Assembly: GCA_034667685.1 (NCBI GenBank)
Contig: JAXDQU010000033.1
Location: 1,769-65,768, forward strand
Length of the DNA: 64,000 nucleotides
Direction: 5' to 3'
DNA from: Thermoplasmata archaeon
GTDB lineage: Archaea > Thermoplasmatota > SW-10-69-26 > JACQPN01 > JAJPHT01
Made by a program: the position numbers and the translations under genes. This document shows positions 3,313 through 64,000 of this stretch, piece by piece; within the stretch, counting starts at the first letter, position 1; each line of letters begins with the position of its first letter. The notes below the pieces were generated by a model, which worked only from the letters and a program-made list of their open reading frames with translations, was not told where the DNA came from and ran no database searches.

Positions 3313-3368
3313 GGCCGGACCAACTGTGGTGGCCTCTTGCCGTTTTCGGTTGCGCACCTGGGCCGTTG

Positions 3369-6719: not shown

Positions 6720-6796
6720 CCTGCACCCTCCCGGTCCTGGAGTGTCCTGCGCGGGAAGCCCCTTCGTCTGTCGCGCGGGGGGAAGACAACGCGGCC

Positions 6797-7483
6797 TCAG
6801 TGGGGAAGCGTGAGCCCCGGCAGCGCCTGCGCGATCCCGTTGAGGATGAACTGCACCGCGACGGCGGCGAGCAGCAGGCCCATGATGCGCGTGAAGACCT
6901 GGAGGCCCGAGCGTCCCAGGAAGCGGAAGAGGCGCTCGCCCATGACCAGGAGGAGGGCCGCGACGGCGAACGTCACGAGGACCGAGGCGTAGACGACGGC
7001 CTGCTCGATGCGGTCCGCGTGCGAGGCGAGCAGGATCATGACGGTGGTGATGGCGCCGGGCCCCGTGAGCAGGGGCACGCCCAGGGGCGTGATGCCGATG
7101 TTCTCGCGCTCCAGCGCGTCGGCGATCTCGGCGTCGTTGCTGTCCGCCTTGGGGCGCTCGCCCTGGAGCATGTCGAAGGCGACCTTGAAGATCAGGATCC
7201 CGCCCGCGATGCGGAAGGCCGGGATCGTGATGCTGAACACCGAGAAGATGAACTGCCCCGCCAGGCCGAAGACCACGAGCACGCCCGCGCCCACGAGCAC
7301 GGCCTTGGTGATGACGCGCCGGCGCATCGCGGCGTCGTAGCCGCCCGTGAGCGCCAGGAACGTCGGGATCACGCCGACGGGGTTCACGATGGCGAACACG
7401 CTGACCAGGATCGCGAGGAGCGCCGCCCAGTCCACGGGAAAGCCGAGCCCGCGCGGGCCTTCAACGTTTCGAAGGGGCGTCAC
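6797..7483 (-). CDS. MarC-family integral membrane protein
   Basis: Family-like sequence: LAILVSVFAIVNPVGVIPTFLALTGG...GITPLGVPLLTGPGAITTVMIL. There is no in-frame ATG. GTG at 7483 lies 22 nt downstream of TATAAA (7510-7505) and would be leaderless. GTG at 7435 is an alternative start. The ORF track's upstream extension to 7696 is Pro/Arg-rich. Confidence 0.75.
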   Translation of the reverse strand: MTPLRNVEGPRGLGFPVDWAALLAILVSVFAIVNPVGVIPTFLALTGGYDAAMRRRVITKAVLVGAGVLVVFGLAGQFIFSVFSITIPAFRIAGGILIFKVAFDMLQGERPKADSNDAEIADALERENIGITPLGVPLLTGPGAITTVMILLASHADRIEQAVVYASVLVTFAVAALLLVMGERLFRFLGRSGLQVFTRIMGLLLAAVAVQFILNGIAQALPGLTLPH

Positions 7484-7504
7484 CCGGCCCGGGGGTCGGG
7501 CGGC

Positions 7505-7510
7505 TTTATA
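7505..7510. promoter_or_regulatory. TATA box (TTTATA/TATAAA) apparently shared by divergent leaderless genes 6797-7483(-) and 7536-9152(+)
   Basis: This is the only A/T hexamer in the 52-nt gap. GTG 7536 is 26 nt downstream on the + strand and GTG 7483 is 22 nt downstream on the - strand. Confidence 0.5.
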
Positions 7511-7535
7511 GGGCCCCAGGCGAGTCGGCGCGGTC

Positions 7536-18773: not shown

Positions 18774-18843
18774 GCTGTTCACTCCCTGCCAAGGCTGCGC
18801 CACGCGGGCGAGACCCAAGCCACGCCGGAAGGCGCTTGGGGGG

Positions 18844-18851
18844 CGATAAGC
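18844..18851 (-). promoter_or_regulatory. TATA-like GCTTATCG 71 nt upstream of paralog 2 start
   Basis: Minus strand reads ccgaatGCTTATCGcccc. The equivalent ccgaagCCTTATCGgcccc lies 75 nt upstream of paralog 3. Confidence 0.35.
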
Positions 18852-18899
18852 ATTCGGTCCACGCCGCGGTGAAGTCTCGGGAGACCCGCTTCGCTTTCC

Positions 18900-18939
18900 A
18901 AAAAAGGTGGGGTGGGCGGCGCCGCGGGCGCCGCCCACC
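18900..18939 (-). terminator. Perfect 13-bp hairpin followed by T6 downstream of paralog 3
   Basis: GGTGGGCGGCGCC (18911-18923), loop gcg, GGCGCCGCCCACC (18927-18939). A6 at 18900-18905 gives T6 on the minus strand after the hairpin. It starts 13 nt after the stop at 18952. Confidence 0.6.
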
Positions 18940-18951
18940 AAGTCCTGTCGC

Positions 18952-20712: not shown

Positions 20713-20786
20713 GCGATTGCACTCCCAACGCAGGGTGGGATAGCCTCCTCCCGGTCCCGGCGCGCTCCGGCGAACGATCGAGGGGC

Positions 20787-20794
20787 CGATAAGG
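20787..20794 (-). promoter_or_regulatory. TATA-like CCTTATCG 75 nt upstream of paralog 3 start
   Basis: Conserved in sequence and spacing with 18844-18851 upstream of paralog 2. Confidence 0.35.
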
Positions 20795-21079
20795 CTTCGG
20801 CCGCCGGACGATCCCGGAGGTCCTCGTGAGCCCTAGGCGCGACGCGGAACCCCTCTGGCCGGCCGCCGTTTCCCCAAGCGTCATGGGGGGGTGCGACCGA
20901 CCGCCGCGCGGAGGAAGGACGCGCCCCTGCCACCGGCCTCGTTTCTACATGTCGAGCCTCATTCCACGGTCAAAGGGTGTGTCGCAAAACTCAAGAGGGG
21001 CCAACCCGTGGCCTCGGATTGCTGCCAGGGGCGGAGCGTCCACGTCCGTCCAGGTGGCGAAGCCTGAGGAGGCTGTGCA

Positions 21080-24000
21080 TTGAAGCGAGCCACTGCGCTG
21101 AAGGTCCTAGCTGGGACTCTTGCTCTGATCACGCTGGCGTCGGCGCTTCCCCTCGCGGTGTACCTGGAGAACCAGGCCGCGAAGGGCGCCACGTCCGGCG
21201 CCAGTCCCACTGACGAAGGAGCCCCCGACGCCACGGGTCCGCTCCCCTTCGGCCCCTCGGCCGGCACCGATCCCTCCTCGACGCCGCAGGCCCCCGCGGG
21301 CGGTCCCTCCTCCCTCCCGCCGGCCTCCGACGCCACCTTCTTCGCCGCGCGCCCCTCCTCCGCCGGCGGCACGGGCAGCCCCCTCGTGGACGAGATCCTC
21401 GGGGCCGCCCACACGATGGGCCTGAAGGACGTCCAGGTCCCCGCGCTGCCCACGCAGCAGCTTCCGGCGACGAACCCGCTGCGCTTCGCGATCGTCGCGT
21501 GGATCGCCGCGACCGGCTCGAAGGTCCCCGCGGACCAGCTCTCGACGCAGCTCGCGCAGGCCGACGCGCTCCCGCAGCCCTTGCAGAAGGACCTCGCGCT
21601 CGTGATCCTCAGCGCGGCGCAGGCCAGCATCCTCCAGCAGGTCGCGCTGGCGAAGCTCTCGCCCGCCGACGTCGCGTGGGTCTACGCGCACCCGGAGTTG
21701 GCCGACCAGCTCGCCAAGGGCGTCTCGACGCCCGACACGCAGCGGCTCGCGGCCCTCGCGGGCAAGGTCGACATGAAGTCCAGCCTGGAGGCCTCGCTCC
21801 TCGTCGTCGAGGCCGTCGAGGCCACGCGCGGCGACCTCGCGAGCTATCAAGCGAAGCACGTGCTCGAAGCCGCGCCGGCCCTCGCGCAGGACCCGAGCAC
21901 CGCGGCGCTGATCCGCCTGATCGCGTCCGCCAGCGGCGGGCTCTCCGACGCCGACAAGATCCGCCTCGCGGCGCGCATCGTCGCCACGAGCGCGCACCTC
22001 CCGGCGCCCGCGGAGCCCACGCCCATCGCGTCGTTCGCCGATGCCGTGCAGGGCCTCGTGAAGGCCTCCAGCATGGCGCCCGACCCGGCCGCGCTCTCCG
22101 CCGCGCTCGCCCGCGCCGACGCGCTTCCCGCCGACCTCCAGACCGCGCTCGCCACGATGGTGAGCGCCGAGTCGAATGCGATCAATGCGGCGAACCCGCA
22201 GCTCTACACGCCCACGGGCCGCCTCGACGCGCTCGTCGACGTCCTCATGGCGACGGCCTACGCGATGCCCACGCTGGAGAAGTACAACCTCTTCTGGCGC
22301 GACGCGCCCAGCGCGCTCCGCGTCGGGCAGTGGACGCCCGCGGCCGCCGCCGGCTACGCGCTCGAGGAGTCCGCGCTTCTGCTATCAGCGCGCGGCGACC
22401 CCGTCGCGGTCGCGCGCGCCGAAGGCTATCTCCACGGCGGAGGCCTCGTCTCGCCCACCATCCCCGCCCGCACGCTCACCGAGGCGTACGCCGCGCTCGA
22501 GGCGCAGGCGCGCCTGACGCCCGACGCGAAGGCGCTCGCCTCCGTCGACCAGGCCGCGGCCACGCTGGCGCCCGCCGTGCGCGACGCCGCCGCGATCATG
22601 ATGTCCGGCGCGGCCGAGAGCGCGCGTTACCAGCGCCTCGCCTTCGCCAACCTCACGCCGCAGGAGCAGGCGTGGCTCACCACGCAGACGCTCGGCCTCG
22701 ATGGCCTCTACGCGCAGGCCAGCCCCACGCAGGCCCAGCTCGACGCGCTCGCCCGCGCCTCGCTGCTCGCGGAGCGCGTCAACGCGACCGCGCTCGCCAA
22801 CGCCGAGGTCGTGGGCGTGATGGCCCTCGCGCAGGCGCGCCAGACGCTCGCCAGCGCCGGCTACGCCGCGCAGGCCGAGGACGTCCGCGCCGCGCCCACG
22901 ATCTGGGCGCGCCTCGCCGCGCTCCTGCCCGTGGGCAGCGCCAGCGCGCAGTCCGCCGCGTGCGTCGACCTCGGGTCGAGCATCCAGGTCGGCGTCGTCG
23001 ACAACGACTGCGCCAACGACGTCCTGCTGCGAATCCACCTGAGCGTGCTCCCCTCGTCGAGCAGCCCCGAGTGCGACGGCTCCTCGTGCTGGGCCCACTT
23101 CGGCGACGCCAACGACGAGGCGCTCGTCCTCCTGGGCACCGGGGGCTCCAACCTGATGCCCGAGACCGGCACGCGCTTCGAGTGCGCCGAGAGCCCCGCC
23201 TACGCGCAGGACCGCGCGGGCGGCGCCGCCATGTGCGCCGACGGCTCCTCCTTCCCCTCGCAGACCGTGCAGGTCCCGCGCTACGGCGCCGCGACGGTGC
23301 TGCTCGACCTGGGCGGCTCCGACACGTACGACCGCCCCGTGGCCGCCACGTCGGTCAACGCCACGCTCCCCGTCTCGCTCCACCTCGACATGGGCGGCTC
23401 CAACGTCTACCTCGACCCGACGAGCCTCTACGACGGCCGCGACCCGATGATCGTCGCCGTGGGCCGCGACGCGGGCATGCCCACCGAGGGCAGCGCCGAG
23501 TTCGGCGGCGTCGCCGTGCTCTTCGACGCGGACTCCGCCGCGAGCGACTCGTACACGGCGCGCACGCACGGCATCGGCTTCGGCCGCTTCGGCCTGGGCA
23601 TGGTCGTGGACCTGGGCGGCAACGACCTCTACGCCGGCGGCAACTTCACGCAGGGCGCCGGCTCGGAGGAGTACAACCTCGGCGGCGGCATCCTCCTCGA
23701 CGCGGGCGGCAACGACCGCTACGTGGCGACCGTGATCCGCGGCGCCGCGCAGGGCTACGGCCTGGGCGGCGTGCTGCTCGACGTGCAGGGCAAGGACTCG
23801 TACACCAACCGCCACGACCCGCTGGGCCTTCCCGCCTCGCGCCTCAACGTGCTCCCCGGCGGCGACCTCGGATCGCTCTCCTCGCGCGGCGACAACCGCG
23901 TCTGGATCGACGGCGACTCGGGCGTGAACGTCGGCCTCGGCCTCGACGAGGACGCCTCGACCGGCCCCAACCTCGGGCGCGGGCTCCCCGGCATCGAGGA

Positions 24001-27000
24001 CTTCGTCGCGCAGGAGCAGGGGCGCGTGGGCGCCATCGCGCAGGACTCCGACGGCGACACGTTCCCCGACTTCATCGAGAGCGCCTTCGGCACCGACCCG
24101 CACGGCGCGGCCTCGTACCCCGCGGGCTTCCCGCGCGGCCCGATCCTCGACCTCCCCCTCCAGGGCAACAGCGTCAACGACGACGGCGGCAAGGTCTCCA
24201 ACGACGCGCCCCCGGGCACGCCGGTGGGCTCCGACAAGATCGTGGACCTGCGCCTCCCCACCCACAACCTCGGCGGCCTCGACGGGGTCTGCCTGGGCCG
24301 CGAGCACCTGAACGCCTCGGGCCTGGACGGCTCGCTGGCCAGCGTCTCGGGCGGCACCCCCGTCTCGGACAACGTGGACGGCCAGGCCGCGGGCACCGAC
24401 CAGGGCGACACCCTCCACGGGCAGGACTGCGCCCCCACCTCGATCACGTTCGGCCCCAACGGCACGGGCTCCGACCAGAGCAACCAGGACAACTTCTCCT
24501 TCCAGCTTCCCACCGGCATCCTCGCCATCGGCGACTCGGTGGACACCACGTACTCCGTCGACTACCTCGTCGCGATCGACCTGGGCGGCAACGACCGGTT
24601 CCTCGACGTGGCCGGCGGCGCCACGCCCATCCTGACGACGCCCTCCGAGGCGACGGCCACGAGCAGCTCGATCACCGGCACGACCGTGAGCTATCAGCAG
24701 GCGTTCCTCGCGCCCACGCTCGCGATCAACGTCGATCCCTCGCTCGTCGTGCAAGCCATCCGCGACCCGCAGCCCGGCTGCGGCTGCGACGCCTACCTCC
24801 CGGCCAAGTCCACCGGCGGCGACTACTCGCAAGGCAGCATGTACGGCGTGCTCGTCGACACCGGCGGCAGCGACCGCTACTTCGCGCGCAACGTCAGCCA
24901 GGGCGCGGTGGGCGGCGTGCTGCTCGACCTCTCGGGCACCGACCTCTACTTCGCCAACAGCCTCTCGCAGGGCGCCTCGCTGGCGGGCTTCGGCACGGGC
25001 GTCAACGGCGCCACGGGCCTCCCCTCGGGCGACGGCCGCTTCCTGGGCAAGGACTCCGCGGACCGCCGCGCCGTGCCCGGCCTGCTCCTCGACGCCGCGA
25101 GCGCCTCCGACGCGCTGGGTGGAGCCAACTTCTTCCAGGCCGCCTCGAACAGCCAGGGCTTCGCGCGCGGCTTCCCGCTGGGCGCGGCGCTCAACACCGG
25201 CAGCGGCGGCGCGGGCCCCGCGAACAACACCGTCTGCGACCTCGACACGCAGGGCTTCGGCACGAAGGGCTCGGGGAGCTGCCAGCAGTCGCCCGACGCC
25301 GTGGGCCTCCTGATCTCCGCGGGCCCCAACACCTTTGATAGCTACGCGGGCCAGACGAAGGTCCAGGGCGTCGGCGGCGGCCGCGGACTGGGCGCCCTCT
25401 TCGACCTGGGCAGCACGGCCGACTCCTACGCCGCGCAGGGTGCCATCAGCCAGGGCGCCCCCCTGGGCGAGGCCACGTCCGCCGGCACGGGCATCTACGA
25501 CCCCGCGGGCAACGCGACCGAGCCGGGCGCCGGCCTCCTCGTGGACCTCGCCGGCGGCGCGGGCGGCAACGCCTACACGCTGGGCGCGCAGACGCGCGAC
25601 CGCGCGGGCCACGTGACCATCACCCGGGCCGACGCGCCCGTCTACGTCAGCCCCGGCGGCACGCAGGTGGGCGGCGCGCACCTCTACGACGACGTCGGCA
25701 TCGACGCCGACCTCAACGCCACGAGCGCCGACGCCAGCCACCCCACGGCCGCGGGCATCCTCCCCGCCATCTTCGGCGGCGACGTCCAGGGCTCCGCGGG
25801 CAAGCTGCTCGACATCCCGGCCGCGCGCCTCGCCATCGGCGACAGCACCGGCACGGCGTACAACGGCACGGACTACGCGCTCATCGTCGACCTGGGCGGC
25901 GCCAACGCGTACAACGACACCGGCGCGGGCTTCGTGGCCGACGCGCTCGCCAGCGCCGAGGCGCAGCCCTCCGGCCAGAGCTGCGTCGCGGCCGCGTGCG
26001 AGCGCCCCACGCTGAGCCTCTACCCCGTCTCGCTCCTTCTCGACGCGGGCTCCGCGGGCAGCTCGCACGTCGCCTCGCGCCCCCTTTCGCAGGGCGCCGG
26101 CTTCTTCAGCGTCGGCGTCCTCGCGGACCTCGGCGGCAACGACGCGTACTCCGTCGTCAGCTCGCCCCAGCTCTCGTTCGGCCTGGGCTGGGCGCCGCGC
26201 GTGCCCGTCTTCGACGGCAACGTCAACTACGGCCCTGGCGCCGAGTGGAACGCCACGCTGCGCAGCCGCAACGCGACGCAAGATGTTATCACCAGGCCGG
26301 CCGGCTCCACGCTCAACCTGACGAGCCTGCAGGACCCGCGCCTCGTCTCGCCCTTCAAGGTCACGATGGAGAACGACGGGCGCGCGCTCTACCTCGCGAT
26401 CGAGGGCCTCACGCGCAGCACCGCCGCCACGGGCGTCTCGGGCAGCGCGTACGGCAAGCAGGGCGACCGCCTCTCCGTTGATATCAACCCCGGCGCCACG
26501 CACGCCGTCTTCGACGCGGCGCTCAACCGCACGGGCCTGCTGCGCGTCGGCCTCAACATGCAGAACGACGGCTCGGCCTGCGCGCCGCCCATCGTCGAGG
26601 CGATGAACGTCACGCCCACCGGCCAGCTCTTCTCGCCCGACGCGGCCAGCGCGGTCATCGGGAAGTGCCGCGTCGCCAACGGGCGCTTCTACGCCGAGAT
26701 CGCGGTGCCGCTCCTTCCGGGCCTCACGCGCGACCCGCTCGCGCTCGCCTACACGCAGGACGCGGACGGCAAGCTCCACTACTGCGCGAACGTCCCGGGC
26801 TGCGTCGACGACGCCGCCTTCGCGGTCCGCCTGCAGTTCCACGAGAACGCGACGGGCAACGACTACGCCTGGCCCGCCGGCACCACCGACGTGGAGGGCG
26901 CGTTCAACGCCACCTCCAGCCAGCCCTCGAGCACGCCGCCGGGCAGCGTCGTCCCCTTCATGCTCGACTGGGCCACGGTCCAGCTCGCGCAGGCCGGCTC

Positions 27001-30000
27001 CGACGCGATCCCGCCCGCCCTCGCGCGCACGCCCGACCTGACGCAGGGCGCCGCCGTCGCGGGCGTGGGCATCGTCGCCAACCTCGGCACCGGCGCCAGC
27101 GACAAGACGTTCACCGCGGGCGAGCGCTCGCAGGCCTACGCGGCCTACGGCGGCCTCGCCATGCTGCTATCCGCGTCCGGCTCCGACGTCTACACGGCCG
27201 GCGCGCTCAGCCAGGCCGCGGCGCAGACGCAGGGCGTCTCGCTCTTCCTCGCCTCCGACGGCAACGACCGCTACGTCCTCACCGACCCCGTCACGCCGCG
27301 CGTGCGCAACGACGGCTACGTCCCCAGCGCGGGCGACCGCGCCAGCGCGACGTTCCTCGACCTGGGCGGCGCCGACGTCTACGACCTCGACGCGCCCGCC
27401 GCGTGCGAGGCGCAGCACTGCGCGTTCCTCCCCTCGGGCGGCTCGGCCGGCGCGATCCCGCCCGCCAAGAACCAGCGCGCGTGGGTCTCGCAGGACCGCG
27501 CCGCCGCCAGCACCGGCGGCGCGGGCGTCGACGCCGACATCGTGGACACCTACGTGCGCAACCAGCTCGCGCCCACGCTCGAGACGGCGCTCTACGCGCA
27601 GGCCGCGCTCACGCGGCTGGGCATGAGCCCCGCGGACCCCGCGGCCCCCTTCGGCTGCGCGCCGGGCCAGGTCCCCACGCGCAACTGGAGCGCGGCCGTC
27701 TCGAACCCCGTGCTCTCGGGCACCGTCTGCCTGCGCGCGCACGTGGACCTCACGCCGCGCGCCCAGTCGGCCAGCACCACGATCGACCACGTGGACTTCC
27801 TGCTCGACGGCCGCCCCGTCCTCTCCGTCCCCAACCCGGACCCCGCCGCCGCGGTCGTCGACCTCGCGGGCCTGCTCGACACGACGCGCTATCTCGAAGG
27901 CGTGCACGACCTCACCGCGCGCACCGCCATCCGCGTCGCCATCCAGCCGCCCGCCGGCAGCAACGCCCCCGTCTCGACGATGCTGCTCTACGACGACTCC
28001 TCGGCCTCGCTGACGCCCGATCCTTCCAGCGCGCGCGTGCTGGTGAGCAACGCGCCGCTCCCCTCGCTCGCGCTGGCGCCCGCCTTCGCCACGACGAACG
28101 CCTCGGCGGTCGTCTCCGCCATCGCGTCCGACCCGACCAAGGCGCGCCTCGACGCGACGTACGCCGTCTCGCACGACGCCGACGAGGAGCGCCTCAACGC
28201 GTTCATGCGCTGGGCCCCCTCCGCCGAGCAGTCCGCGATCCCGTGCGAGCCCGCCGCGACGCGCCTGTGCAGCCTGCTGCCGCTCTACCTGCCCGACCCC
28301 GCGCTGGGCACCAACCTCACGACGACGCCCACCAACGCCGCGCTGGGCACCGCGTACGGGGAGCAGGGCGACGCGCAGGCCTTCTCCGTGAAGACCTCGA
28401 CGCTGGGCACGCCGCTCACCATCGCGACGAAGGACGCCTTCCACGTCCACCTCAACGACCACACGCCGCTGCTCCCCGGCCAGGCGTACACGACGCGCAT
28501 CCTCGTCCACCTCGACGGGCCCTCGGGCTCCAAGCTCCAGGTGGGCGGCCAGGACGTGCTCCTCGCCAACGCGACCGTCGTCAACGACTTCACGACGCCC
28601 GGCGCGACCGCCGGAGGCCTCCTGGGCGACAACTACGCCGCGACGCGCGGCACCGTGTACGGCGCGTTCGAGGACGGCGAGCAGGGCGTCGCCGGCCTGC
28701 GCCACTTCGACCCGGGCCCGGCGCTGGGCGCGCTCCTGCAGAACTGCTGCCTGATCCCGTCGGTCTCGCACACCGTCTCCGACAAGCTCAACGGCACCTC
28801 CGAGGCGGGCACGCTGGACCCCTACACGGAGACCGCCGCCAACACCACCGAGGGGAACCTGCCCGCCACCGACACGGGCTTCTCCGACTTCTTCCTCGAC
28901 CTCCAGGACTCGCCCGCGCTGCGCAGCCTCGGCGTCGTCCCCAGCGCGGACGGCACGGGCCTCACGATCCCGCCCGGCTACGGCATCAGCCTGGAGATCT
29001 TCGACGCGCCGAACACCGTCGTCGTCCCCGAGCACACCGGCGACTCCCTCGACACCGTCGAGGAGACCTACGGCAGCACGCTCAACCAGGTCGGCATCGT
29101 CAGCACGCCCGTGCTCCCCCTGACCGCGCTCCTGGGCCAGGACTACAGCGAGAGCCTCGACCGGCTCGTGCTCCCCACGCACGTCGTCGACCCCGCGCTC
29201 CCCGCGGTCACGGACCAGACGATCAACGTCACCGCGGCGCTCATCGCCCCCGTCGACAACGTGAAGCAGTCGCTCCAGCAGTCGACGCTCAACAAGACGC
29301 TCTCGAACGGCCCGCCCGTCGCGTTCTTCTTCACGGGCACCGGCGACGCGACCTCGCAGAGCCGCCTCGACGTGCGCGTGCCCGCCGAGCCCTCGACCCT
29401 CGTGACCCTGCAGGTCCTCGACGCCGCGGGCACCGTGCGCCGCACGCTCGTCTCCGAGCGCCCCACCGCGGGCAGCCTCCCCGGCCAGGCCGACAGCGCG
29501 GACGCCTCCAGCTTCGCGCCCCACGTCGTCTACCTGCGCAACGGCACCGGCTCGCCCTACTCGCGCCTCGGCGCCGCCTGGCGCGGCGAGGACGACCACG
29601 GCAACCGCCTGCCCGACGGCGTCTACACGGTCCGCCTGGCCGCGCAGGACCCCGCCAACCCCGCGGTCGCGCTCACGCAGAACGCGCTGCTCGACTCGAC
29701 GCCGCCCCTCACGACGATCACCACGCCGGACCACATCAGCAGCGCGATGCTCGTGGACAATGGCATCCCGCTCGCGTGGAGCGTCGCCGAGGGCGACACC
29801 GGCTCGGGCGTCAGCACGACGCGCCTCTACGTCTGGAACGGCCAGGGCAGCCTCGCCGACCCGACGAAGTGGGTCGCCGCCTCCGTCTTCGGCGCGGCCG
29901 AGGGCGACAACGAGTTCGACGGCAGCACCACCGCGGTCCACGCCAAGGCGCCTGGCGCGACGCCCACCACCTCCTACTGGATGGCGATCAGCCGCGACTT

Positions 30001-56596: not shown

Positions 56597-57816
56597 AGCT
56601 CCTCCAAGACCCCAAGCCGCGCGGCTGGCTCGCCGTGGGCCTCGTCGCCGCGCTCGCGCTGATCGTGCTATCCCCGTTCGTGCTCTTCCCCGCCCAGCGC
56701 CATCTCTCGGCCTACGCCGAGGGCGCCGAGGACGCCTCGCACGTGCGCGGCGAGCTCTCCGCCTGGACGACGCGCGACGTGCTGACCACGCCCTCTTTGC
56801 TATCCGGCGTCAAGGACCCAGGCAAGACGCTCCTCCTGGTCATGGGCGCCGAGCGCCGCTACGACGCCTCCGAGGCGGAGGCCATCGTCTCCTTCCTGCG
56901 CGCCGGCGGGCACGTCATCCTCGCCGACGAGGGCGGCTTCGGCACCGCCGTCGCGCGAGAGGCGGGCTTCGCCTTCGACAACAGCCGCGTGCTCGACAGC
57001 AGCAACTACCACGGCGACCCCAAGCTCGTCGTCGCCAACAGCACGCTCGCGGGCCGCACGTACCGCATCCTCTTCAACGCGCCCACCGCCATCGTGGCGC
57101 TCCCCGACGCGACCGGCCTCGCGCCGCAGGTCCTCGCGCGCTCCACCGCCGCGGCCGCGTTCCCGGAGAGCAGCTACCGCGACCTCAAGGGCAACGGCCA
57201 GATCGACATCGCCGACCCCACGGGGCCCTTCGACCTCGTCGTGCGCACCGACCGCCTGGGCGGCACGCTCGTCCTCGTCGCCGACACCGGCCTCTTCATG
57301 AACGGGCAGGTGGACCTCGGCGAGTTCGAGAACGGCGCCTACGTCCGCGCGCTCGTGAATGACATCCTTCCTCGGGACGGCACGATCCTGATCGACGAGA
57401 GCCGCCACGCGCCGCACCCCGGCCTCGCGCCGCTCGACGACGCCGCGCGCGCCCTGGGCCGCGTCACGAGCGGCGACCTCGTCACCTACGCGGCCGTCGC
57501 GCTCCTCGTCCTCGCGGCCGCGGTCGCCGTCGCGATGACGCGCGCCACCGAGGACTGGAGCCACCACGATCACACCGTCGACCACGTCGTCGCGGCGCCC
57601 GAGTCGCTGCGGCCCGACCTGGAAAGAGCGCAGCGTCTCGCACGCCGCCGCATCAGCGAAAAGCATAATATCCCCATGGAGCAGGTGGCGGCGATGAGCG
57701 CCGAGCAGCTCTTGGCGGTCTGCGGCGATGCGATGCTCGCCAACGCCGCCGCCGGAACGCTGCGCGCCGACCCTTCTCCCCTCTTCCGATCCTACGCAGC
57801 TGAGGCAATCCCATGA
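56593..57816 (+). CDS. DUF4350-like membrane protein (407 aa)
   Basis: ATG 56593 overlaps the upstream TGA (ATGA). N-terminal TM GWLAVGLVAALALIVLSPFVLF. Motif KTLLLVMGAERRYDASEAEAIVSFLRAGGHVILADEGG is typical of DUF4350. Second TM LVTYAAVALLVLAAAVAVAM. Confidence 0.75.
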   Translation: MKLLQDPKPRGWLAVGLVAALALIVLSPFVLFPAQRHLSAYAEGAEDASHVRGELSAWTTRDVLTTPSLLSGVKDPGKTLLLVMGAERRYDASEAEAIVSFLRAGGHVILADEGGFGTAVAREAGFAFDNSRVLDSSNYHGDPKLVVANSTLAGRTYRILFNAPTAIVALPDATGLAPQVLARSTAAAAFPESSYRDLKGNGQIDIADPTGPFDLVVRTDRLGGTLVLVADTGLFMNGQVDLGEFENGAYVRALVNDILPRDGTILIDESRHAPHPGLAPLDDAARALGRVTSGDLVTYAAVALLVLAAAVAVAMTRATEDWSHHDHTVDHVVAAPESLRPDLERAQRLARRRISEKHNIPMEQVAAMSAEQLLAVCGDAMLANAAAGTLRADPSPLFRSYAAEAIP

Positions 57817-58850
57817 CCCCGCCCGAGACGACGACCCGCATCACGCCCACGGCCGCGAGCGCCACGCTCACCGGGCCGCCGCGCGACCCCAAGATCCGCG
57901 AGGCCATCCGCCAGGTCGGCGTGGCGGGCACCGCGCTCACCGACGAAGTCGGCCGGGTGATCGTGGGCAAGAAGGACCAGCTCAAGCTCGTCGTGCTCGC
58001 CATCTTCACGGAAGGCAGCCACGTCCTCCTGGAGGACATGCCGGGCCTGGGCAAGTCCGTCCTCGCCGCGGCCCTCGCCCGCGCGAGCGGCTGCGACTTC
58101 AAGCGCGTGCAGTTCACGCCCGACCTGCTGCCCTCTGACATCAACGGCACGTTCATCCTCAACCAGCGGACGCACGAGTTCGACTTCCGCCCCGGGCCGA
58201 TCTTCACGAACTACCTGCTCGCGGACGAGATCAACCGCGCCTCGCCCAAGACGCAGTCCGCCATGCTCGAGGCGATGGCCGAGAAGCAGGTGACGGTGGA
58301 AGGCTACACGCAGAAGCTTCCGAAGCCCTTCGTCGTCATGGCGACGCAGAACCCCGTCGAGCAGGCCGGCACGTACCCGCTGCCGGAGGCGCAGATGGAC
58401 CGCTTCGCGATGAAGCTCAGCATGGGCTATCCTTCCCTGGAGGAGGAGGCGGAGATCCTGATCCGCCGCGCCAAGCGTGGCAAGGACGACTTCGACGTCA
58501 AGCCCGTGAGCAGCGCCGAGCAGATCGTGGCGATGCAGAAGGCGATCGAGAACGTGTACGTCTCGGACGAGCTGATCCGCTACATCGCGACGCTCATCGA
58601 CGCCACGCGCAAGCACCCGCAGCTCGTGGCCGGCTCGTCGCCGCGCGGCACGCAGAACCTGTTCAAGCTGGCGCGCGGCTGGGCCGCGATCCACGGCCGC
58701 GACTACGTGGTGCCCGATGACATCAAGCGCCTGATGGTGCCCGTGCTGGCGCACCGCGTGATCCTGAAGCCGGAGCCCCGCATCAAGGGCGTGAAGGCGC
58801 AGGACATCATGCAGCAGATCCTCGACAACACGCCCGTGCCCAAGGTCTGA
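57813..58850 (+). CDS. moxR: MoxR-family AAA+ ATPase
   Basis: ATG overlaps the upstream TGA (ATGA). Walker A PGLGKS, Walker B LLADEINRA, ATQNPVEQAGTYPLPEAQMDRF, SPRG sensor region. 345 aa, typical MoxR (AAA_3) size. Confidence 0.95.
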   Translation: MTPPETTTRITPTAASATLTGPPRDPKIREAIRQVGVAGTALTDEVGRVIVGKKDQLKLVVLAIFTEGSHVLLEDMPGLGKSVLAAALARASGCDFKRVQFTPDLLPSDINGTFILNQRTHEFDFRPGPIFTNYLLADEINRASPKTQSAMLEAMAEKQVTVEGYTQKLPKPFVVMATQNPVEQAGTYPLPEAQMDRFAMKLSMGYPSLEEEAEILIRRAKRGKDDFDVKPVSSAEQIVAMQKAIENVYVSDELIRYIATLIDATRKHPQLVAGSSPRGTQNLFKLARGWAAIHGRDYVVPDDIKRLMVPVLAHRVILKPEPRIKGVKAQDIMQQILDNTPVPKV

Positions 58851-58852
58851 AC

Positions 58853-60100
58853 ATGTGGACGCGCAAGTCGACGCTGCTCGTGGGGGTCGGCCTCCTGGCC
58901 CTCCTCCTGGGCATCGCGGGGAAGAGCCCCGCCGCCCTCGCCGCCGGCAGCGTCGCGCTCGCGTTCGTCCTGGTCAACCGCGCGCTCTTCCGCGGCACGG
59001 AGGACGTGCGCGCCACGCGCAGGCTCGACCTGCAGCGCGTCTACGAGGGCGAGACGACGCAGGTGCGCGTCGAGGTGGAGAACCCGAGCAAGCGCCTTCT
59101 CTTCCTGGAGGTGCGCGACCGCCTTCCGCGCCAGCTCAAGGTCGCGGCGGGCGCGTCGTACGACTTCGTGGCGCTTCCCGGCGGGGCGCGCGATGACGTG
59201 ACCTACACGGTGCAGGCGCCGCTCCTGGGCGTCTACGAGGTGGGCCCCACCGACCTGCGCCTGGAGGATCCCTTCGGCCTCTTCTACGAGGAGCGCGCGG
59301 TCGAGGGCAGCAACACCTTCTGGGTCCTGCCGCGCCACGAGGACCTCCGCAAGGCCGCGCTGCTCTCGAACCTCCCGATGCCGCTGATGGGGGAGCACCA
59401 GGTCAACCGGCCCGGCGACGGCTTCGACTTCTTCGCGCTGCGCGAGTACGTGCCCGGCGACACGATGCGCGCCATCAACTGGAAGGCCAGCGCGCGCTCG
59501 GGCAAGATGATGGTCAACCAGATGATGCGCACCACCGCGGCCGAGGTCGCCGTCTTCATCGACGCGCGCGCCGTCACCGCGATGGGCAAGGAGGCGCAGA
59601 GCGGCCGCGTGCTCACCGCGCGCGCCGCGGCCAGCATGATCGAGCTGGTCTTCGCGCGCAAGGACCAGCCGCGCGTCATCCTCTACGGCGAGGGCGTGCG
59701 CGAGATCGAGCCGCAGCCCGCCGACCGCATGGTGCCGCTCCTCCTGGAGACGCTCGCGGAGCTGGTGCCCGCCGGCAGTGTGCCGCTGCGCCACGCCGTC
59801 TCCCAGACGCTCCCGTCGCTCAAGCCCCGCACGCCGGTCATCCTCGTCTCGCCCATGCTCGACGATGGCACCGTGGCGGAGGCGGCCAGCATCCTGCTCG
59901 CCAACGACATGCTCCTGGCCGCGGTCTCGCCGCGCCCCGAGAGCCTGCCCGGCCTTCCGGCGGACTTCGCCGCGGCGCTCATGAAGGAGCGCGCGCAGGC
60001 GCTCAACGAGCTGCGCGGCTACGGCGCCATCGTCATCGACCTGGAGCCGGGCGCGAGCCTGGCCGCGACGATGGAGAAGGGGAGGCTGCTCGTGGCATGA
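58853..60100 (+). CDS. DUF58 family protein (vWA-fold partner of MoxR)
   Basis: Starts 2 nt after the moxR stop. Two N-terminal hydrophobic helices. Signature FDFFALREYVPGDTMRAINWKASAR. Confidence 0.9.
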   Translation: MWTRKSTLLVGVGLLALLLGIAGKSPAALAAGSVALAFVLVNRALFRGTEDVRATRRLDLQRVYEGETTQVRVEVENPSKRLLFLEVRDRLPRQLKVAAGASYDFVALPGGARDDVTYTVQAPLLGVYEVGPTDLRLEDPFGLFYEERAVEGSNTFWVLPRHEDLRKAALLSNLPMPLMGEHQVNRPGDGFDFFALREYVPGDTMRAINWKASARSGKMMVNQMMRTTAAEVAVFIDARAVTAMGKEAQSGRVLTARAAASMIELVFARKDQPRVILYGEGVREIEPQPADRMVPLLLETLAELVPAGSVPLRHAVSQTLPSLKPRTPVILVSPMLDDGTVAEAASILLANDMLLAAVSPRPESLPGLPADFAAALMKERAQALNELRGYGAIVIDLEPGASLAATMEKGRLLVA

Positions 60101-60777
60101 CGAAGCCCTTCCCCCACGAGCGGCGCCTGCAGCGCTTCGCGTTCGCCGCGCTCGCCCTCGCCGCGATCCTCGCCCTCGTCGCCACGCGCCAGGGAGAGAT
60201 GCGTCTCTTCGGCGCCGCCGTCCCCGGCCTCGCGGCGTACGTCCTCGTGGGCGCGGGCGCCATCGCGGGCGTCGTCGCGATCCTGCGCCGCGTGCCCTGG
60301 CTGGCGCTCGCGGCCGTGGCGCTCCTCGTGCTCGCCACCGTGCCGGCCGACCTGCTATCACCCGGCCTCCCGGCCTGGGGCGTCGCGCTCGCCTTCGCCG
60401 CCGCCGCGCTCGCCTTCGCCGAGCTGGTCCACATGATGGGGCGCTACGAGGCCGCGCACCGCGCCGTGGAGCGCGACGGCCTGCCCGAGGACCACCTCAA
60501 CCGCGTCACCGACGAGGCGCTGGCCACGCTCGCCGGCCGCGCCGGCCTGGCGCTCCTCCTCGTGGGGCTCGCGCTGGGCCTGGCGTACCTTCTCGCCTTC
60601 GCGGGCCCCGCGCAGTGGCGCGACGCGCTGGAGACGACCTCGCCGCTGGGCGTCGGCCTCGCCGCGATGGCGCTCCTGGGCGCGGGCGCCCTTCTCGTCC
60701 TCTTCCGTGGCGCGCGCATGCCGTGGCGGCGCGCCCCGATCCCGCCAACCCAGGAGAATGCTCCCGATGTCGACTAG
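60097..60777 (+). CDS. Polytopic membrane protein (226 aa, about 6 hydrophobic spans), family not recognised
   Basis: ATG 60097 overlaps the DUF58 TGA (ATGA), with GGGAGG 11 nt upstream. Ala/Leu/Gly-rich spans, e.g. FAFAALALAAILALVAT and AGLALLLVGLALGLAYLLAFAG. Confidence 0.65.
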   Translation: MTKPFPHERRLQRFAFAALALAAILALVATRQGEMRLFGAAVPGLAAYVLVGAGAIAGVVAILRRVPWLALAAVALLVLATVPADLLSPGLPAWGVALAFAAAALAFAELVHMMGRYEAAHRAVERDGLPEDHLNRVTDEALATLAGRAGLALLLVGLALGLAYLLAFAGPAQWRDALETTSPLGVGLAAMALLGAGALLVLFRGARMPWRRAPIPPTQENAPDVD

Positions 60778-63700
60778 GACCGTTGCCGCCCTGCTCGTCG
60801 CTCTCGTCTCGCTCAGCGTGCTCCCCGCGGGCGCCCAGGCCCAGGGGGCGGGGACCAGCGACCTCGTCGCGACGGCGCTCGTCCTCGACAACCCCATCGT
60901 CAACAGGACGACGACCGTGGACCTCACGGTGCAGAACCTCGGCACCGCCACCAGCGGCCCCTTCACGGTCTTCTTCGGCTACGGGAAGGCCGACTCGGAC
61001 GCCGACTGCCTCACCGCCGACAACTCGGCCGACTCCAGCGACCCGACCCAGGTCGCCAACTCCGGTCCGCAGGCGTGCTATCAGCAGCAGCCCTCGGGCC
61101 TGCCCGGAGGCCAATCCGTCCACGTCACGTTCCGCTGGACGATCACGCCCGCGAAGGCGTTCCCGAACAACGGCCAGATCACGATCATGACCGAGATCGA
61201 GAACCCCTGCACGCAGCAGCAGAACACGACGGCCTGCCAGGGCACGACCGGCGTGATCGGCAGCCGGAGCCAGGGCCCCGACACGGAGACGGGGAACAAC
61301 CTGAAGGCGTTCTTCCCCTCCGTCAAGATCCCCAAGGTCCACGCGTGGCCGCTGCGCAACGCTCCGGCGCCCGAGCCGGCCAGCGCGCCCACGTTCGTGA
61401 ACCTCGACTGGCCGCGCGACCAGGTCAGCGTGCCGTGCGTCGACCCGCCGCTCGTCAACGACGTCGCGTGCGTCGCGCAGCCCGGCCACGCCATCCAGTC
61501 GGTCTACCACGTCGTCAACAGCGGCAACACCGGCGACACGATGGTGGGCTCGGTCCTCGCGATGGCGTCGCTCTACAGCGACCTGGGCTACCGCGTCACG
61601 TTCGCGCCCGCCTCCAAGTTCCTCAACCCCGGCGAGTCGGCCGACATCGTCGCGATGATCGACGTGCCCCCGCAGGCCCCCGCCGGCCAGTCGCCCAACG
61701 TGGGCACCGCCACGCCCAACATCACGCTGGTGTGGTCCTCCTCCACCGATTCCCGCGTCCGCAGCGACGACGCGGGCAACACGGCGCAGGACTGCCCGTC
61801 CACGCTCGACGACGCGCGCGAGTGCCAGGCCGCCACGCTCCTGCCCTTCGTGGTGGCGACCCGGCACGGCCTCAACGTCACGACGAGCCTCAAGGACAAC
61901 TTCACGACGGTCTCCGTGGGCAACACGACCTCGTTCAGCCTGATCGCGAACAACACGGGCAACGCGCCCGACGAGTACGCGGTCACGCTCGACCGCGCGC
62001 TGAGCACGATCAACGACTCGTGGCTGCGCCCCGGCTCGCTCCCCGCGCCGCGCACGCTCCAGGCCGGCGAGGTCTCCACGTTCCAGCCCACCATCGTCCC
62101 GCCCGCGAACGCGACGAAGGGATACTACACGGTGGCGTACGACGTGCAGAGCACCTCGACCGACGCGACGCTGCCCCAGAAGGTCAAGTTCACCGTGCTC
62201 CTCGACCAGTGGTACGGCCTGACCTGGCAGAACGACAACCCGCGCCAGCGCCTCGTGCCCGGCGAGAGCGCCTCGTTCCGCATGAGCGTCGCCAACCCCG
62301 GCAACGGCCCGGAGAACCTGACGGTGGGCGTGCAGAACCAGCCCAACGGATGGTTCTGGTCGATCTCCAGCACGACGATCGCGCTGGGTCCCCACGGCCT
62401 GGGCAACGACACGGCCGTCTTCTTCCTCAACACGACGATCCCGCCCAACGTCCCCGCCGGCGCGGCGGCGACCTTCTTCGTGAACGTCACGTCCAACGAC
62501 CCGGCCAACCAGCCCGCGCTGCGCCCCGCGCCCGCGAGCCTGGAGGACGAGGTGGACGTGATCGCGGGCCCCAACGCCGAGCTGAGCGCCGGCGTCACCG
62601 AGCAGTTCGTCGACCCGGGCAACACGACGACCTACCGCGTCCACGTGCGCAACGTGGGCAACGAGGCGAGCAACTTCAGCGTCGTCGCGCGCTCCTCCAG
62701 CGGCGTCTGGGGCGCGAGCGTCGACCCGGGCTATCTCGTGCTCGTGCCGGTCAACTCGCCCACCGGCTTCGCGGAGGGCGACGTCACGCTCACGCTGCGC
62801 GCGCCCGCGGGCGTGCGGGTGGGCGACCCCGAGTCGATCGACCACGTGACCGTGACGCTGACGCCCTCGACGGACGACGGGCGCGCGCGCAGCCTCGTGC
62901 TCGACGGGCGCCTCTCCGGCCCCGACCTCACCGTCGCGCGCGTCGACGCCAACACCACGACGCCCTACGGCGGCGACCCCCTCGGCCTCACGGTGCGCGT
63001 GGGCAACGTCGGCAACCGCCAGCCCGCGGCGGCGGTCACGCTCAGCGTCGTCGCCATCGACGCCACGGGCGGCCGGACGCTCATCGGCAACGTCACGCTC
63101 CTTCCCACCGACCTGCGCCCGGGCGGCGTGCACGACGTGCGGGTGCCCTGGGACACGACGGGCGTCGAGGGCGCGCAGGTGATCCAGGCGACGATCGACC
63201 CCGCCAACGCGATCCCCGAGATCGACGAGACCAACGACCAGGCCTCGCTCTCGCTGGTGCTCCGCACCGCCAACGCGATCCGCCTCGTGCCTCCGCAGGA
63301 CGGCCTCTCGGGCCACCCGGGCGAGCGCGTCTCGTACGACGCCTCGCCGGACGTCTTCCAGATCCAGTACACCGGCAACCAGCCCTCCGAGCCCGTGCGC
63401 GTCGAGATCCTCAGCGAGCACGGCTGGGTCGCGGCGGACAAGGCCGTCATCAACCTCGACCTGCCGCACCTCGCGACGCTCCCCATCCCGGTCGACCTCA
63501 CGATCCCCACGCTGCCCGGCACGAGCACCGACCGGCTGACGCTGCGCGTGACGCCCGTGTACCGCCCCAACGCGCCCGTCACGGCCGCCATCACGACCGG
63601 CGTGCTCGACGACGCGCCTCCCCAGATCCAGGGCGTCACCGTCGACCCGCCCGCGATCAAGCTGGGCCAGAACGCGACGATCTACGCCACGGTGGTCGAC

Positions 63701-64000
63701 GCGACCGGCCTCGCCAGCGTGCGCGCCAACGTCATCACGCCCACCAGCGACGTCGAGAGCCTGCTGCTCCTGCCGCAGCCCGACGGGCGCTTCGCCGCGA
63801 CGCAGCCCTGGCTCCAGGCCGGCACGTACGGCGTCACCCTCGCCGCGACGGACAACGCCGTGCCCACGCCCAACGTGAACGACACGCACCAGGTGCTCGC
63901 CTCGTTCAGCGTCGCGCCCGGAAGCCAGCCCGTCATCGCGCTCGCCCCCGGCCAGTCCACGACGATCCACACGGGCTCGGTCGTGCTCCTCTCGATCACG
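60767..64000 (+). CDS. Large secreted CARDB-repeat surface protein, 3'-truncated by the window (at least 1,078 aa)
   Basis: Not in the ORF track because there is no stop. I checked every TGA/TAG/TAA from 60767 to 64000 and none falls in this frame. ATG 60767 (alternative 60758) follows AGGAG and overlaps the upstream gene by 11 nt. Signal MSTRTVAALLVALVSLSVLPAGAQA. CARDB-like units (DLVATALVLDNPIVNRTTTVDLTVQNLGTATSGPF; PDLTVARVDANTTTPYGGDPLGLTVRVGNVGN). Confidence 0.8.
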   Translation, partial: MSTRTVAALLVALVSLSVLPAGAQAQGAGTSDLVATALVLDNPIVNRTTTVDLTVQNLGTATSGPFTVFFGYGKADSDADCLTADNSADSSDPTQVANSGPQACYQQQPSGLPGGQSVHVTFRWTITPAKAFPNNGQITIMTEIENPCTQQQNTTACQGTTGVIGSRSQGPDTETGNNLKAFFPSVKIPKVHAWPLRNAPAPEPASAPTFVNLDWPRDQVSVPCVDPPLVNDVACVAQPGHAIQSVYHVVNSGNTGDTMVGSVLAMASLYSDLGYRVTFAPASKFLNPGESADIVAMIDVPPQAPAGQSPNVGTATPNITLVWSSSTDSRVRSDDAGNTAQDCPSTLDDARECQAATLLPFVVATRHGLNVTTSLKDNFTTVSVGNTTSFSLIANNTGNAPDEYAVTLDRALSTINDSWLRPGSLPAPRTLQAGEVSTFQPTIVPPANATKGYYTVAYDVQSTSTDATLPQKVKFTVLLDQWYGLTWQNDNPRQRLVPGESASFRMSVANPGNGPENLTVGVQNQPNGWFWSISSTTIALGPHGLGNDTAVFFLNTTIPPNVPAGAAATFFVNVTSNDPANQPALRPAPASLEDEVDVIAGPNAELSAGVTEQFVDPGNTTTYRVHVRNVGNEASNFSVVARSSSGVWGASVDPGYLVLVPVNSPTGFAEGDVTLTLRAPAGVRVGDPESIDHVTVTLTPSTDDGRARSLVLDGRLSGPDLTVARVDANTTTPYGGDPLGLTVRVGNVGNRQPAAAVTLSVVAIDATGGRTLIGNVTLLPTDLRPGGVHDVRVPWDTTGVEGAQVIQATIDPANAIPEIDETNDQASLSLVLRTANAIRLVPPQDGLSGHPGERVSYDASPDVFQIQYTGNQPSEPVRVEILSEHGWVAADKAVINLDLPHLATLPIPVDLTIPTLPGTSTDRLTLRVTPVYRPNAPVTAAITTGVLDDAPPQIQGVTVDPPAIKLGQNATIYATVVDATGLASVRANVITPTSDVESLLLLPQPDGRFAATQPWLQAGTYGVTLAATDNAVPTPNVNDTHQVLASFSVAPGSQPVIALAPGQSTTIHTGSVVLLSIT

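Follow-up and report, generated by a model that had tools for sequence, protein, structure and literature searches.

What are genes for proteins of more than 4,000 residues doing in the same operon as a MoxR-type ATPase and a DUF58 protein? The question is raised by a 64,000-nucleotide stretch of DNA (the window; positions 1,769 to 65,768 of contig JAXDQU010000033.1, assembly GCA_034667685.1) from an uncultured Thermoplasmatota archaeon, whose genome has a GC content of ~73%. Nine of its genes, numbered g1 to g9 here, encode two groups of proteins: anchored giants rich in N-x-S/T sequons (g1, g2, g3, and g9), and a transmembrane (TM) module (g4 to g8) made up of a DUF4129 protein, a DUF4350 protein, MoxR, DUF58 and a small membrane protein. 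A first reading of the sequence, made without database searches and referred to below as the original prediction, saw in this operon a possible assembly or maintenance machine for a calcium-dependent cell-surface matrix. On balance, we favor the reading that the locus is a giant-protein variant of a module already recognized from the archaeal arCOG01314 (DUF4350) neighborhood and from the bacterial TgpA operons, and that it assembles or maintains a surface structure.

Few prokaryotic gene clusters that still lack a mechanism are as widespread as the modules in which MoxR and DUF58 are joined by TgpA/DUF4129 and DUF4350 partners. They are represented by TgpA in Pseudomonas, Rv3689-Rv3695 in mycobacteria, the PFNA cluster in Bifidobacterium and the arCOG01314 neighborhood in archaea. 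In the present locus the DUF4129 subunit has itself grown into a surface protein of 2,257 residues, and up to four more anchored giants share its operon, which provides unusually direct genomic evidence that the module acts on or with cell-surface proteins. The locus also names candidate clients and points of contact for the module, the latter being the cytoplasmic tails of g4 and g5, and draws attention to a populous and unannotated family of giant archaeal envelope proteins.

Operon structure

The GC content of the window is 71-78% over its whole length, so that spurious long open reading frames (ORFs) occur in all frames, and the real genes were distinguished from them by the GC content of the codon positions. 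The nine ORFs of the operon (Table 1) have a GC content of 0.93-0.98 at the third position against 0.41-0.54 at the second, which is the coding signature of a genome of 73% GC, and each of the nine plus-strand starts listed in the original prediction opens one of these ORFs. They extend from 21080 to window-equivalent 64540, that is 43,461 nt or 14,489 codons. The protein lengths given earlier were also correct, and their sum becomes 14,489 amino acids (aa) once g9 is included in full: this protein is cut by the end of the window, and a longer version of the contig, from the Joint Genome Institute (JGI), contains all of its 1,257 aa.

The junctions between the genes are exactly of the types that had been described. 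There are two GTGA junctions (33157 and 45738), four ATGA junctions (49823, 56593, 57813, and 60097), a gap of 2 nt ahead of 58853 and an overlap of 11 nt at 60767-60777. GGAGG-like sites do precede most starts, with strong enrichment: GGAGG is found 4-18 nt upstream of five of the nine, while its background is 1.1% of the positions in the region, and the four-base core GGAG or GAGG is found at seven of the nine against a background of 7.2%. The nine genes thus appear, from their layout, to be co-transcribed and translationally coupled.

Table 1. Genes of the operon and other features of the window. TM, transmembrane; aa, amino acids.
Feature	Position	Strand	Length	Description
g1	21080..33160	+	4,026 aa	Signal peptide, C-terminal TM segment, KKK tail
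g2	33157..45741	+	4,194 aa	Signal peptide; CARDB, NPCBM_assoc and MAM-like domains scattered along the protein
g3	45738..49826	+	1,362 aa	Signal peptide, NPCBM_assoc x3, CARDB, Ig_VWA7-like
g4	49823..56596	+	2,257 aa	N-terminal TM segment, ectodomain of ~2,075 aa, second TM segment, DUF4129
g5	56593..57816	+	407 aa	DUF4350 (arCOG01314-type); PF14258, 44.7 bits
g6	57813..58850	+	345 aa	MoxR-type AAA+ ATPase; AAA_3 and AAA_lid_2
g7	58853..60100	+	415 aa	DUF58; starts 2 nt after the moxR stop
g8	60097..60777	+	226 aa	Six TM segments by hydropathy scan
g9	60767..64000	+	cut at window end	Signal peptide, CARDB x2, Ig_VWA7-like, weak Ca_tandemer
MCM helicase gene	9139-11304	-		Full length (MCM_N, OB, P-loop, and lid domains); the gene that most clearly marks the window as archaeal
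Divergent intergenic region	20713..21079		367 nt	Separates g1 from a gene on the minus strand for a secreted protein
Hairpin	L001:14461-14548 (window-equivalent ~64557-64644)		stem ~33 bp	Near-perfect; directly 3' of the g9 stop

The transmembrane module

Domains were assigned with Pfam and NCBIfam profiles, and topologies with a hydropathy scan. The key protein for interpreting the module is g4, which carries at least 8-14 TSP3-type calcium-binding repeats of the form DxDxDGxxD between nt 50020 and 53003. Pfam identifies TSP3_bac, a Binary_toxB calcium-binding domain and an Ig-like array of CarboxypepD_reg, Big_1 and MG4 in its ectodomain. The second TM segment (aa 2119-2137) is followed by RRRQ, which by the positive-inside rule places the DUF4129 domain (PF13559, 56.5 bits, aa 2171-2239, nt ~56333-56539) in the cytoplasm. 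The remainder of the cassette is encoded directly downstream. No Transglut_core domain (PF01841) was found, either in the whole protein at E<=0.01 or in residues 601-1400 at E<=0.5, and we therefore do not class g4 as a TgpA enzyme.

A relative of g4 in a Thermoplasmata metagenome-assembled genome (MAG) of 52% GC (locus L010) does contain this domain. This protein, of 1,701 aa, is encoded directly before DUF4350-MoxR-DUF58 and contains seven TSP3 repeats, TgpA_N, Transglut_core, Ig-like domains and DUF4129. Its homology to g4 covers the N-terminal TSP3 region, the Ig-like array and the TM-DUF4129 end. Because the two proteins share these regions as well as their position, g4 is a TgpA-like subunit of the module and not a bystander. 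As a separate observation, a Cas10/Cmr2-type gene with HD and palm domains lies ~1.8 kb downstream of the L010 cassette (L010:14608-16779), and is probably unrelated to it.

An exhaustive phmmer search with the TM and DUF4129 end of g4 found 1,856 relatives. It corrected a word-indexed search with the same region, which returned mostly proteins of ~290 aa and missed the giants. Among the best 150 of the 1,856 (cluster representatives), 24 have at least 1,700 aa and a further 34 have 1,000-1,699 aa. When 23 giant relatives were scanned, DUF4129 was present in all of them, Ig-like domains in 17-19, TSP3 in 13 and Transglut_core in 6. A degenerate DNA scan of species-representative genomes for the motif LFEEARYSxH found it almost exclusively in Thermoplasmata/Thermoplasmatota, together with some Bathyarchaeia. 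Of the 123 ORFs containing the motif, 79 have fewer than 500 codons before it and at least 11 have 1,000 or more, while 24 are cut by the edge of the locus. These upstream lengths indicate that a small DUF4129 membrane protein is ancestral, and that the giant form is a recurrent minority.

Two further giants differ in their surroundings. Locus L092 (JAEHCK010000005.1, GCA_020696345.1; 10001-22367) encodes a transglutaminase-TSP3-DUF4129 protein of 2,653 aa, followed by a DUF4350 protein, a DUF58 protein and a membrane protein of 551 aa. Locus L087 encodes a transglutaminase-DUF4129 protein of 2,982 aa, with no cassette in the DNA available.

The topology of g5 is a TM segment, a GldG/flavodoxin-like ectodomain, a second TM segment and a cytoplasmic tail of ~90 aa. 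The ATPase g6 matches AAA_3 with 208.6 bits (cut-off 27) and AAA_lid_2 with 85.2 bits; it has no TM segment and is hence cytoplasmic. Its Walker B motif is LLADE. Its Walker A motif is a variant, EDMPGLGKS, in which PGLGKS is kept and the first Gly is replaced, and this Gly is lost in all of the aligned archaeal relatives (loci L005-L084), which have ED[FYM]PGL[AG]K[ST].

Protein g7 begins with a hydrophobic hairpin, one segment of which was called by the hydropathy scan and the second read by eye. The DUF58 domain that follows (Ig-like plus vWA-like) is cytoplasmic according to the positive-inside rule. The DxSxS motif of the metal ion-dependent adhesion site (MIDAS) is not present in g7, which has DARAV instead, and no MIDAS was found in the DUF58 domains of the same set of aligned relatives, where DxR takes its place. 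Protein g8 has no family match in Pfam or NCBIfam. In all eight related loci checked, DUF58 is followed by a gene for a protein of 4-7 TM segments, and the sequences of these proteins cannot be aligned with each other. No VWA or TPR match, by which the BatA/BatB and TPR proteins that accompany MoxR-DUF58 in a Bat (aerotolerance) operon would be recognized, was obtained with Pfam in the operon.

The anchored giant proteins

The four proteins g1, g2, g3 and g9 have signal peptides at the N-terminus and anchors at the C-terminus. Large parts of the two longest resemble nothing in the databases. Pfam finds FlgD_ig, fn3 and Big_13 Ig-like domains in the last 1,300 aa of g1, and the first ~2,700 aa have no match in Pfam or in the PDB, where a sequence search with g1 gave a single C-terminal fn3-like match. 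Most of g2 likewise has no match in Pfam or the PDB, and the PDB sequence search with this protein found nothing. BLASTP detected no strong repeats within the giants and no paralogy between g1 and g2, and a repeat search of the DNA found only short, diverged TSP3 and GGxD units. A simple tandem expansion of the giants was rejected on these grounds.

The N-terminal part of g1 contains four blocks of a 22-24-aa repeat, 'hLhDxGGxDxY...SQGxG', at aa 735-920, 1140-1500, 1577-1703 and 1990-2100 (23282-27379 of the window overall). One block was modeled with AlphaFold2, and is predicted to be all-beta, with short strands at regular spacing (mean pLDDT 70, rising to 85-95 in the repeat core). Foldseek gave no significant match to the model; the top match was a calcium-dependent beta-helical antifreeze protein (E=2.9), and the best matches, all of them non-significant, were calcium-dependent beta-helix or beta-roll proteins. 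As there is no significant match, a solenoid fold for these repeats is only suggestive. The same repeat, abbreviated as 'DxGGxDxY...SQGxG', also makes up widespread, uncharacterized bacterial proteins of ~650-700 aa, the named sources of which include Planctomycetota, Myxococcales and Deltaproteobacteria MAGs. Some of the bacterial proteins are fused to PDZ or HEAT domains, and no Pfam family covers the repeat in any of the matches listed.

The domain composition proposed in the original prediction therefore holds in large part. The fn3, CARDB, Ig-like and calcium-binding domains are recovered by Pfam, and the solenoid has moderate backing from the AlphaFold2 model, while the jelly-roll corresponds to weak MAM-like matches. 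The prediction was also right that the proteins contain many N-x-S/T sequons. They exceed their frequency in shuffled sequences about twofold in g1-g4 and g9 (z 3.1-6.2), and show no excess over chance in g5-g8; this pattern fits extracellular, N-glycosylated ectodomains.

A tripartite tail, consisting of a Pro-Gly motif, a TM helix and a basic end, was read by eye in g2 (VPGPE, TM, basic), g3 (VPGPEP, TM, RRRR) and g9 (LPGPE, TM, RRRR). The tails look like sorting signals of the PGF/PEP/MYXO-CTERM type, and the orthologue of g2 in locus L086 (described below) has a literal PGF at this position. The profile matches are marginal: the g3 tail reaches 16.1 bits with the generic PEP_CTERM model (cut-off 16) and matches no other model of this kind, the g9 tail reaches 16.2 bits with TIGR04126 (cut-off 24.5), and the g2 tail matches none of the CTERM models. 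Substrates of archaeosortase A with a PGF-CTERM signal, such as the Haloferax S-layer glycoprotein, share with these proteins the signal peptide, the sequon-rich ectodomain and the tripartite tail; they differ in that the tails here read (V/L)PGPE, fall below the TIGR04126 cut-off and are not accompanied by an archaeosortase gene anywhere in the 64-kb window. Among the ORFs with high third-position GC in the first 21 kb, none stood out as AglB-sized or archaeosortase-like, as judged by size and partial Pfam annotation only. Giant envelope proteins of this kind probably make up most of the surface of uncultured and apparently soil-associated Thermoplasmatota.

Conservation of the linkage

If the giants and the cassette belong together, they should stay together in relatives. 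Related loci were gathered by searches with MoxR and with g2, by exact-protein look-ups and by the degenerate DNA scan for LFEEARYSxH; a search of genome contigs with the DUF4350 protein gave no confirmed relative. The DUF4350-MoxR-DUF58 trio is found in most of the Thermoplasmatota MoxR loci that were fetched. The full order, g2-g3-g4-DUF4350-MoxR-DUF58-small membrane protein and in some cases g9, with overlapping junctions, recurs in L086, L005, L090/L091, L093, L094, and L095. There are thus at least six other lineages with the giant arrangement, in which the identity of MoxR falls from 94% to ~60% and that of the giants to 24-33%.

The closest of these is L086 (JAJPHT010000008.1, 73% GC), which has an orthologous operon from g1 to g7 with identities of 51, 53, 65, 69, 69, 94, and 82%, respectively. 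L005 contains g3 to g9, with g4 at 48% identity. The loci L090/L091, L093, L094 and L095 (64-70% GC) are more distant, with MoxR at ~60% and g4 at 27-32% identity, and encode a g3-like protein of 1,300-1,430 aa, a DUF4129 protein of 2,170-2,220 aa, DUF4350, MoxR, DUF58 and an unannotated protein of 200-266 aa in the position of g8. L091, L093 and L095 also retain a CARDB protein, with 3,700 aa or more. In L094 the giant upstream has only a faint Big_13 match, and there is an additional CARDB protein of 1,122 aa.

The original prediction had suggested looking in relatives for linkage between the cassette and large surface proteins, and the six further lineages provide it. Since gene order and overlaps are kept despite deep divergence of the sequences, the linkage is under selection.

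L086 was deposited as 'Proteobacteria bacterium Centralia_MAG_189', although its MoxR is 94% identical to that of the archaeon and its GC content is 73%. It is probably a mis-binned or mis-labeled archaeal contig.

In Poseidoniales the cassette lies among genes of ordinary size, next to genes of the xanthine-dehydrogenase type, and there are no giants. In the marine group II loci inspected (L016, L023, L027, and others, at ~2650-8030), it is directly downstream of a three-gene set of the xanthine-dehydrogenase family, coding for 2Fe-2S, molybdopterin-binding and FAD-binding subunits. Between the set and the cassette is a gene for a protein of 330 aa with an N-terminal signal and a C-terminal TM segment.

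Comparison with known systems

The original prediction held that the operon was not a described system. This is too strong, because its core of DUF4350, MoxR, vWA/DUF58 and Ig-like or S-layer-like proteins was predicted in 2015. Makarova, Galperin, and Koonin (2015) examined the neighborhood of arCOG01314 (DUF4350) in archaea and proposed a novel secretion or membrane-remodeling complex (PMC5898192, section 3.2 and Table 2). Its parts are a MoxR/GvpN ATPase, an Ig-like plus vWA (DUF58-type) protein, surface proteins predicted to be of the S-layer or Ig-like type, and small membrane proteins with 2-5 TM segments (PMC5898192). As published, both this system and its function are computational predictions.

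The resemblance is close. As in the arCOG01314 complex, the DUF4350 protein g5 is membrane-anchored with an ectodomain between two TM segments, MoxR and DUF58/vWA are within the same predicted operon, and the anchored neighbors are Ig-like (CARDB, fn3, Big_13, and NPCBM_assoc in g1-g4 and g9). The 5-TM protein of the complex is matched, by position and number of TM segments, by g8 with its six. The differences are that the surface proteins here have 1,257-4,194 aa, whereas those of the published complex are of ordinary size, that the operon includes a TgpA-like DUF4129 subunit, again of giant size, and that DUF1616/arCOG02884 (PF07760) was not matched by any of the nine proteins. In the 2015 survey Thermoplasmata were scored as lacking the family, and a giant form was not described (PMC5898192).

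Published bacterial clusters in which MoxR and DUF58 accompany TgpA or an FN3/Ig surface protein weaken the claim of novelty further. In Pseudomonas aeruginosa, the proteins PA2874 and PA2875 are a DUF58 protein and a MoxR-type ATPase. The cluster PA2875-PA2874-PA2873 resembles the present one in placing MoxR-DUF58 beside a membrane protein in which an extracytoplasmic domain is combined with a DUF4129-type region at the C-terminus. TgpA is reported to be essential, and its gene to be co-transcribed with PA2874 and PA2875 (PMC3507681). In mycobacteria there is a co-regulated DUF4350/MoxR2/DUF58/SpoIIM/RDD cluster, Rv3689-Rv3695 (PMC8191103), which shares DUF4350 as well. Unlike TgpA, g4 has no detectable transglutaminase core, is 3-4 times longer and carries TSP3 and Ig-like arrays. 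In addition, and again unlike the bacterial TgpA operons, the host is an archaeon without peptidoglycan, and four extra anchored giants are encoded in the operon.

Surface proteins with Ig-like repeats are found beside MoxR in two further bacterial systems. The PFNA cluster of Bifidobacterium (pkb2-fn3-aaa_atp-duf58-tgm) encodes an FN3 surface glycoprotein together with MoxR, DUF58, and a transglutaminase (PMC8430577). It is similar in that a large secreted FN3 glycoprotein accompanies an MRP-type MoxR and DUF58, and in PFNA also a membrane transglutaminase. It differs in that a Ser/Thr kinase is present, joined in some species by a phosphatase and an FHA protein, all of which points to signaling, and in having one FN3 protein of moderate size, no DUF4350, and no giants. 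In the actinobacterial Esr threat-sensing pathway, the partners of MoxR are a vWA protein, a surface filament built of Ig repeats and a transglutaminase by which the filament is kept on the cell (bioRxiv 10.64898/2026.09.08.750141). Esr and the MoxR-vWA-beta-propeller ternary conflict systems share with the present operon the link between an Ig-repeat surface protein and a MoxR and vWA-type pair; beta-propeller sensors, kinases, FHA proteins or effectors, and the distinct bpMoxR clade of those systems (PMC7159879) have no counterpart here. The hypervariable Ig-protein module of Thermococcales (PMC8416519) was set aside, as it has no MoxR or vWA component.

Full-text searches of the searchable literature, with DUF4350, DUF4129, the arCOG numbers, and giant proteins in combination with Thermoplasmatota, did not turn up any account of the giant operon. 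It is concluded that the giant form is undescribed in that literature, and that its core principle had already been predicted.

Function of the operon

The combination of conserved linkage, a giant DUF4129 subunit and sequon-rich anchored partners tips the balance towards a module for assembly or maintenance of a surface structure. Such a module could work as follows. The MoxR ring would take the membrane-tethered, vWA-like DUF58 protein as its adaptor, by analogy with other MoxR/vWA pairs, and would engage two cytoplasmic tails, that of g5 and the DUF4129 tail of g4. ATP would drive the assembly, locking or remodeling of a transmembrane scaffold, to which the co-expressed anchored giants could dock through the ectodomains of g4 (a calcium-repeat and Ig-like stalk) and g5 (GldG-like). 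The scaffold would organize g1-g3 and g9 into a glycoprotein coat on the cell surface, and the stop/start overlaps with their Shine-Dalgarno sites would keep the subunits stoichiometric. The operon would then be a self-contained kit for building and maintaining the coat, and the giants would serve the module as clients or partners. In this sense the machine for assembly or maintenance that the original prediction suggested is plausible, and the idea of a calcium-dependent matrix is suggested mainly by the TSP3 repeats of g4.

Several observations weigh against this picture. The protein g4 appears to lack the transglutaminase core, on which the only known activity of TgpA depends. Classic metal-dependent vWA binding is doubtful because the DUF58 protein has no MIDAS, and ligand binding by the vWA-like domains of the aligned archaeal relatives may not be metal-mediated. 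No MoxR gene was found between or near the cassette genes of L092, and in that lineage the ATPase seems to be dispensable or encoded elsewhere. Because Poseidoniales have the cassette and no giants, the module does not depend on giants. The giants themselves have ordinary signal peptides and do not obviously need a dedicated chaperone. Finally, co-transcription, coupling and every protein-protein contact in the scheme are what we infer from sequence.

A more ambitious version of the same idea, which we regard as speculative and distinctly unlikely, is an ATP-powered machine spanning the envelope. MoxR, acting through DUF58 and the g4 tail and together with g5, would exert mechanical control over a coat of giant calcium-binding glycoproteins, fixing its conformation, tension or position; the lineage may have no rigid wall. 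It would be a parallel, equally speculative, to inside-out activation of integrins or to the movement of adhesins of the SprB/Gld type. If true, this would be the first mechanistic role for the widespread MoxR-DUF58-DUF4129/TgpA modules of bacteria and archaea.

Information could also flow in the opposite direction, with the giants as sensors or antennae and MoxR-DUF58 transducing their state into a cytoplasmic response. There is a limited chance that this is correct. Esr has just such a combination of Ig-repeat filament, MoxR, vWA, and filament-retaining transglutaminase (bioRxiv 10.64898/2026.09.08.750141), the cytoplasmic tails of g4 and g5 could relay signals, and in L086 the giants have diverged far faster than the cassette (51-53% identity compared with 94%). 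Signaling and effector domains are however missing: no beta-propeller, kinase or FHA domain was found by Pfam in the nine proteins, and the operon and its conserved relatives code for none of these and for no phosphatase, transcription factor or effector. Moreover g6 is of the AAA_3, MoxR-proper type and scores 17.7 bits with the bpMoxR model, below the cut-off of 27, and its partner is a DUF58 protein, unlike the vWA protein of the ternary systems.

We consider it unlikely that the module is a dedicated secretion system, as Makarova and colleagues proposed for the arCOG01314 neighborhood (PMC5898192, section 3.2 and Table 2). In such a system g5, g8, g4 and DUF58 would form a conduit, and MoxR would power export of the giants. 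The cargo genes do share an operon with the machinery, and DUF4350 resembles GldG of the gliding/type IX apparatus, by which SprB and other giant adhesins are handled. However, Sec export is sufficient for g1, g2, g3 and g9, each of which begins with an ordinary signal peptide; the sole polytopic protein is g8, which with 226 aa and six TM segments is small for a channel; and MoxR-family ATPases are generally known as maturation chaperones and not as translocases. The 2015 model also assumed that the DUF58 protein is secreted, whereas the positive-inside rule places it in the cytoplasm.

It is very unlikely that the giants merely landed beside a housekeeping cassette, without functional coupling and with the overlaps as a by-product of a compact genome. 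Such an accident would agree with the giant-free cassettes of most Thermoplasmatota, such as those beside xanthine-dehydrogenase-type genes in Poseidoniales, and with the size of most DUF4129 partners (~290 aa). It does not agree with the retention of order and overlapping junctions where the giants share only 24-33% identity, nor with the 24 giant forms among the best 150 relatives of the g4 tail; and in g4 a giant ectodomain is covalently joined to the DUF4129 domain of the module.

The size of the genes and the repeat-rich proteins were the only reasons to suspect the assembly. Identical genes were located by exact-protein look-ups on five further contigs, which come from four samples (JGI 3300044737 and 3300044807; SRR24887402 and SRR24887406). 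These independent contigs have no mismatches to the window wherever they overlap it, over 35738-64000. The longest direct DNA repeats in the region 20-64 kb are of 40-75 nt at 60-83% identity. An assembly artefact or a chimeric contig joined across repeats, which the original prediction had named as a risk, has a negligible probability, because the five contigs are identical, there are no long repeats, and the g1/g2 and g2/g3 junctions recur in a different organism, that of L086.

Source organism and flanking genes

The archaeal origin of the window is borne out by the MCM helicase gene (Table 1) and by the relatives of MoxR. In species-representative genomes, the closest homologues of g6 are nearly all from Thermoplasmatota MAGs, and the top one, from 'Thermoplasmatota archaeon SMAG_U14314', has 86% identity.

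At the upstream end of the operon, the start codon of g1 is TTG, with GAGGAGG 8 nt ahead of it, and the promoter presumably lies within the divergent intergenic region. At the other end, the hairpin after g9 has a dG of -77.8 kcal/mol (z -7.6 compared with shuffled sequences), and is probably a terminator of the operon or an element that stabilizes the transcript. The window contains no copy of the hairpin arm. Beyond the hairpin there is a gap of 180 nt and then a type II glyceraldehyde-3-phosphate dehydrogenase-like gene.

Two tandem minus-strand genes (16986-18941 and 18952-20712) diverge from the operon. Neither has a Pfam match, and the protein of 586 aa that belongs to this pair has a clear signal peptide. 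Both genes encode a similar Cys-containing C-terminal motif, LLGTVGD[SA]Y..RDV.CYD[TS]T, and they may code for paralogous secreted proteins.

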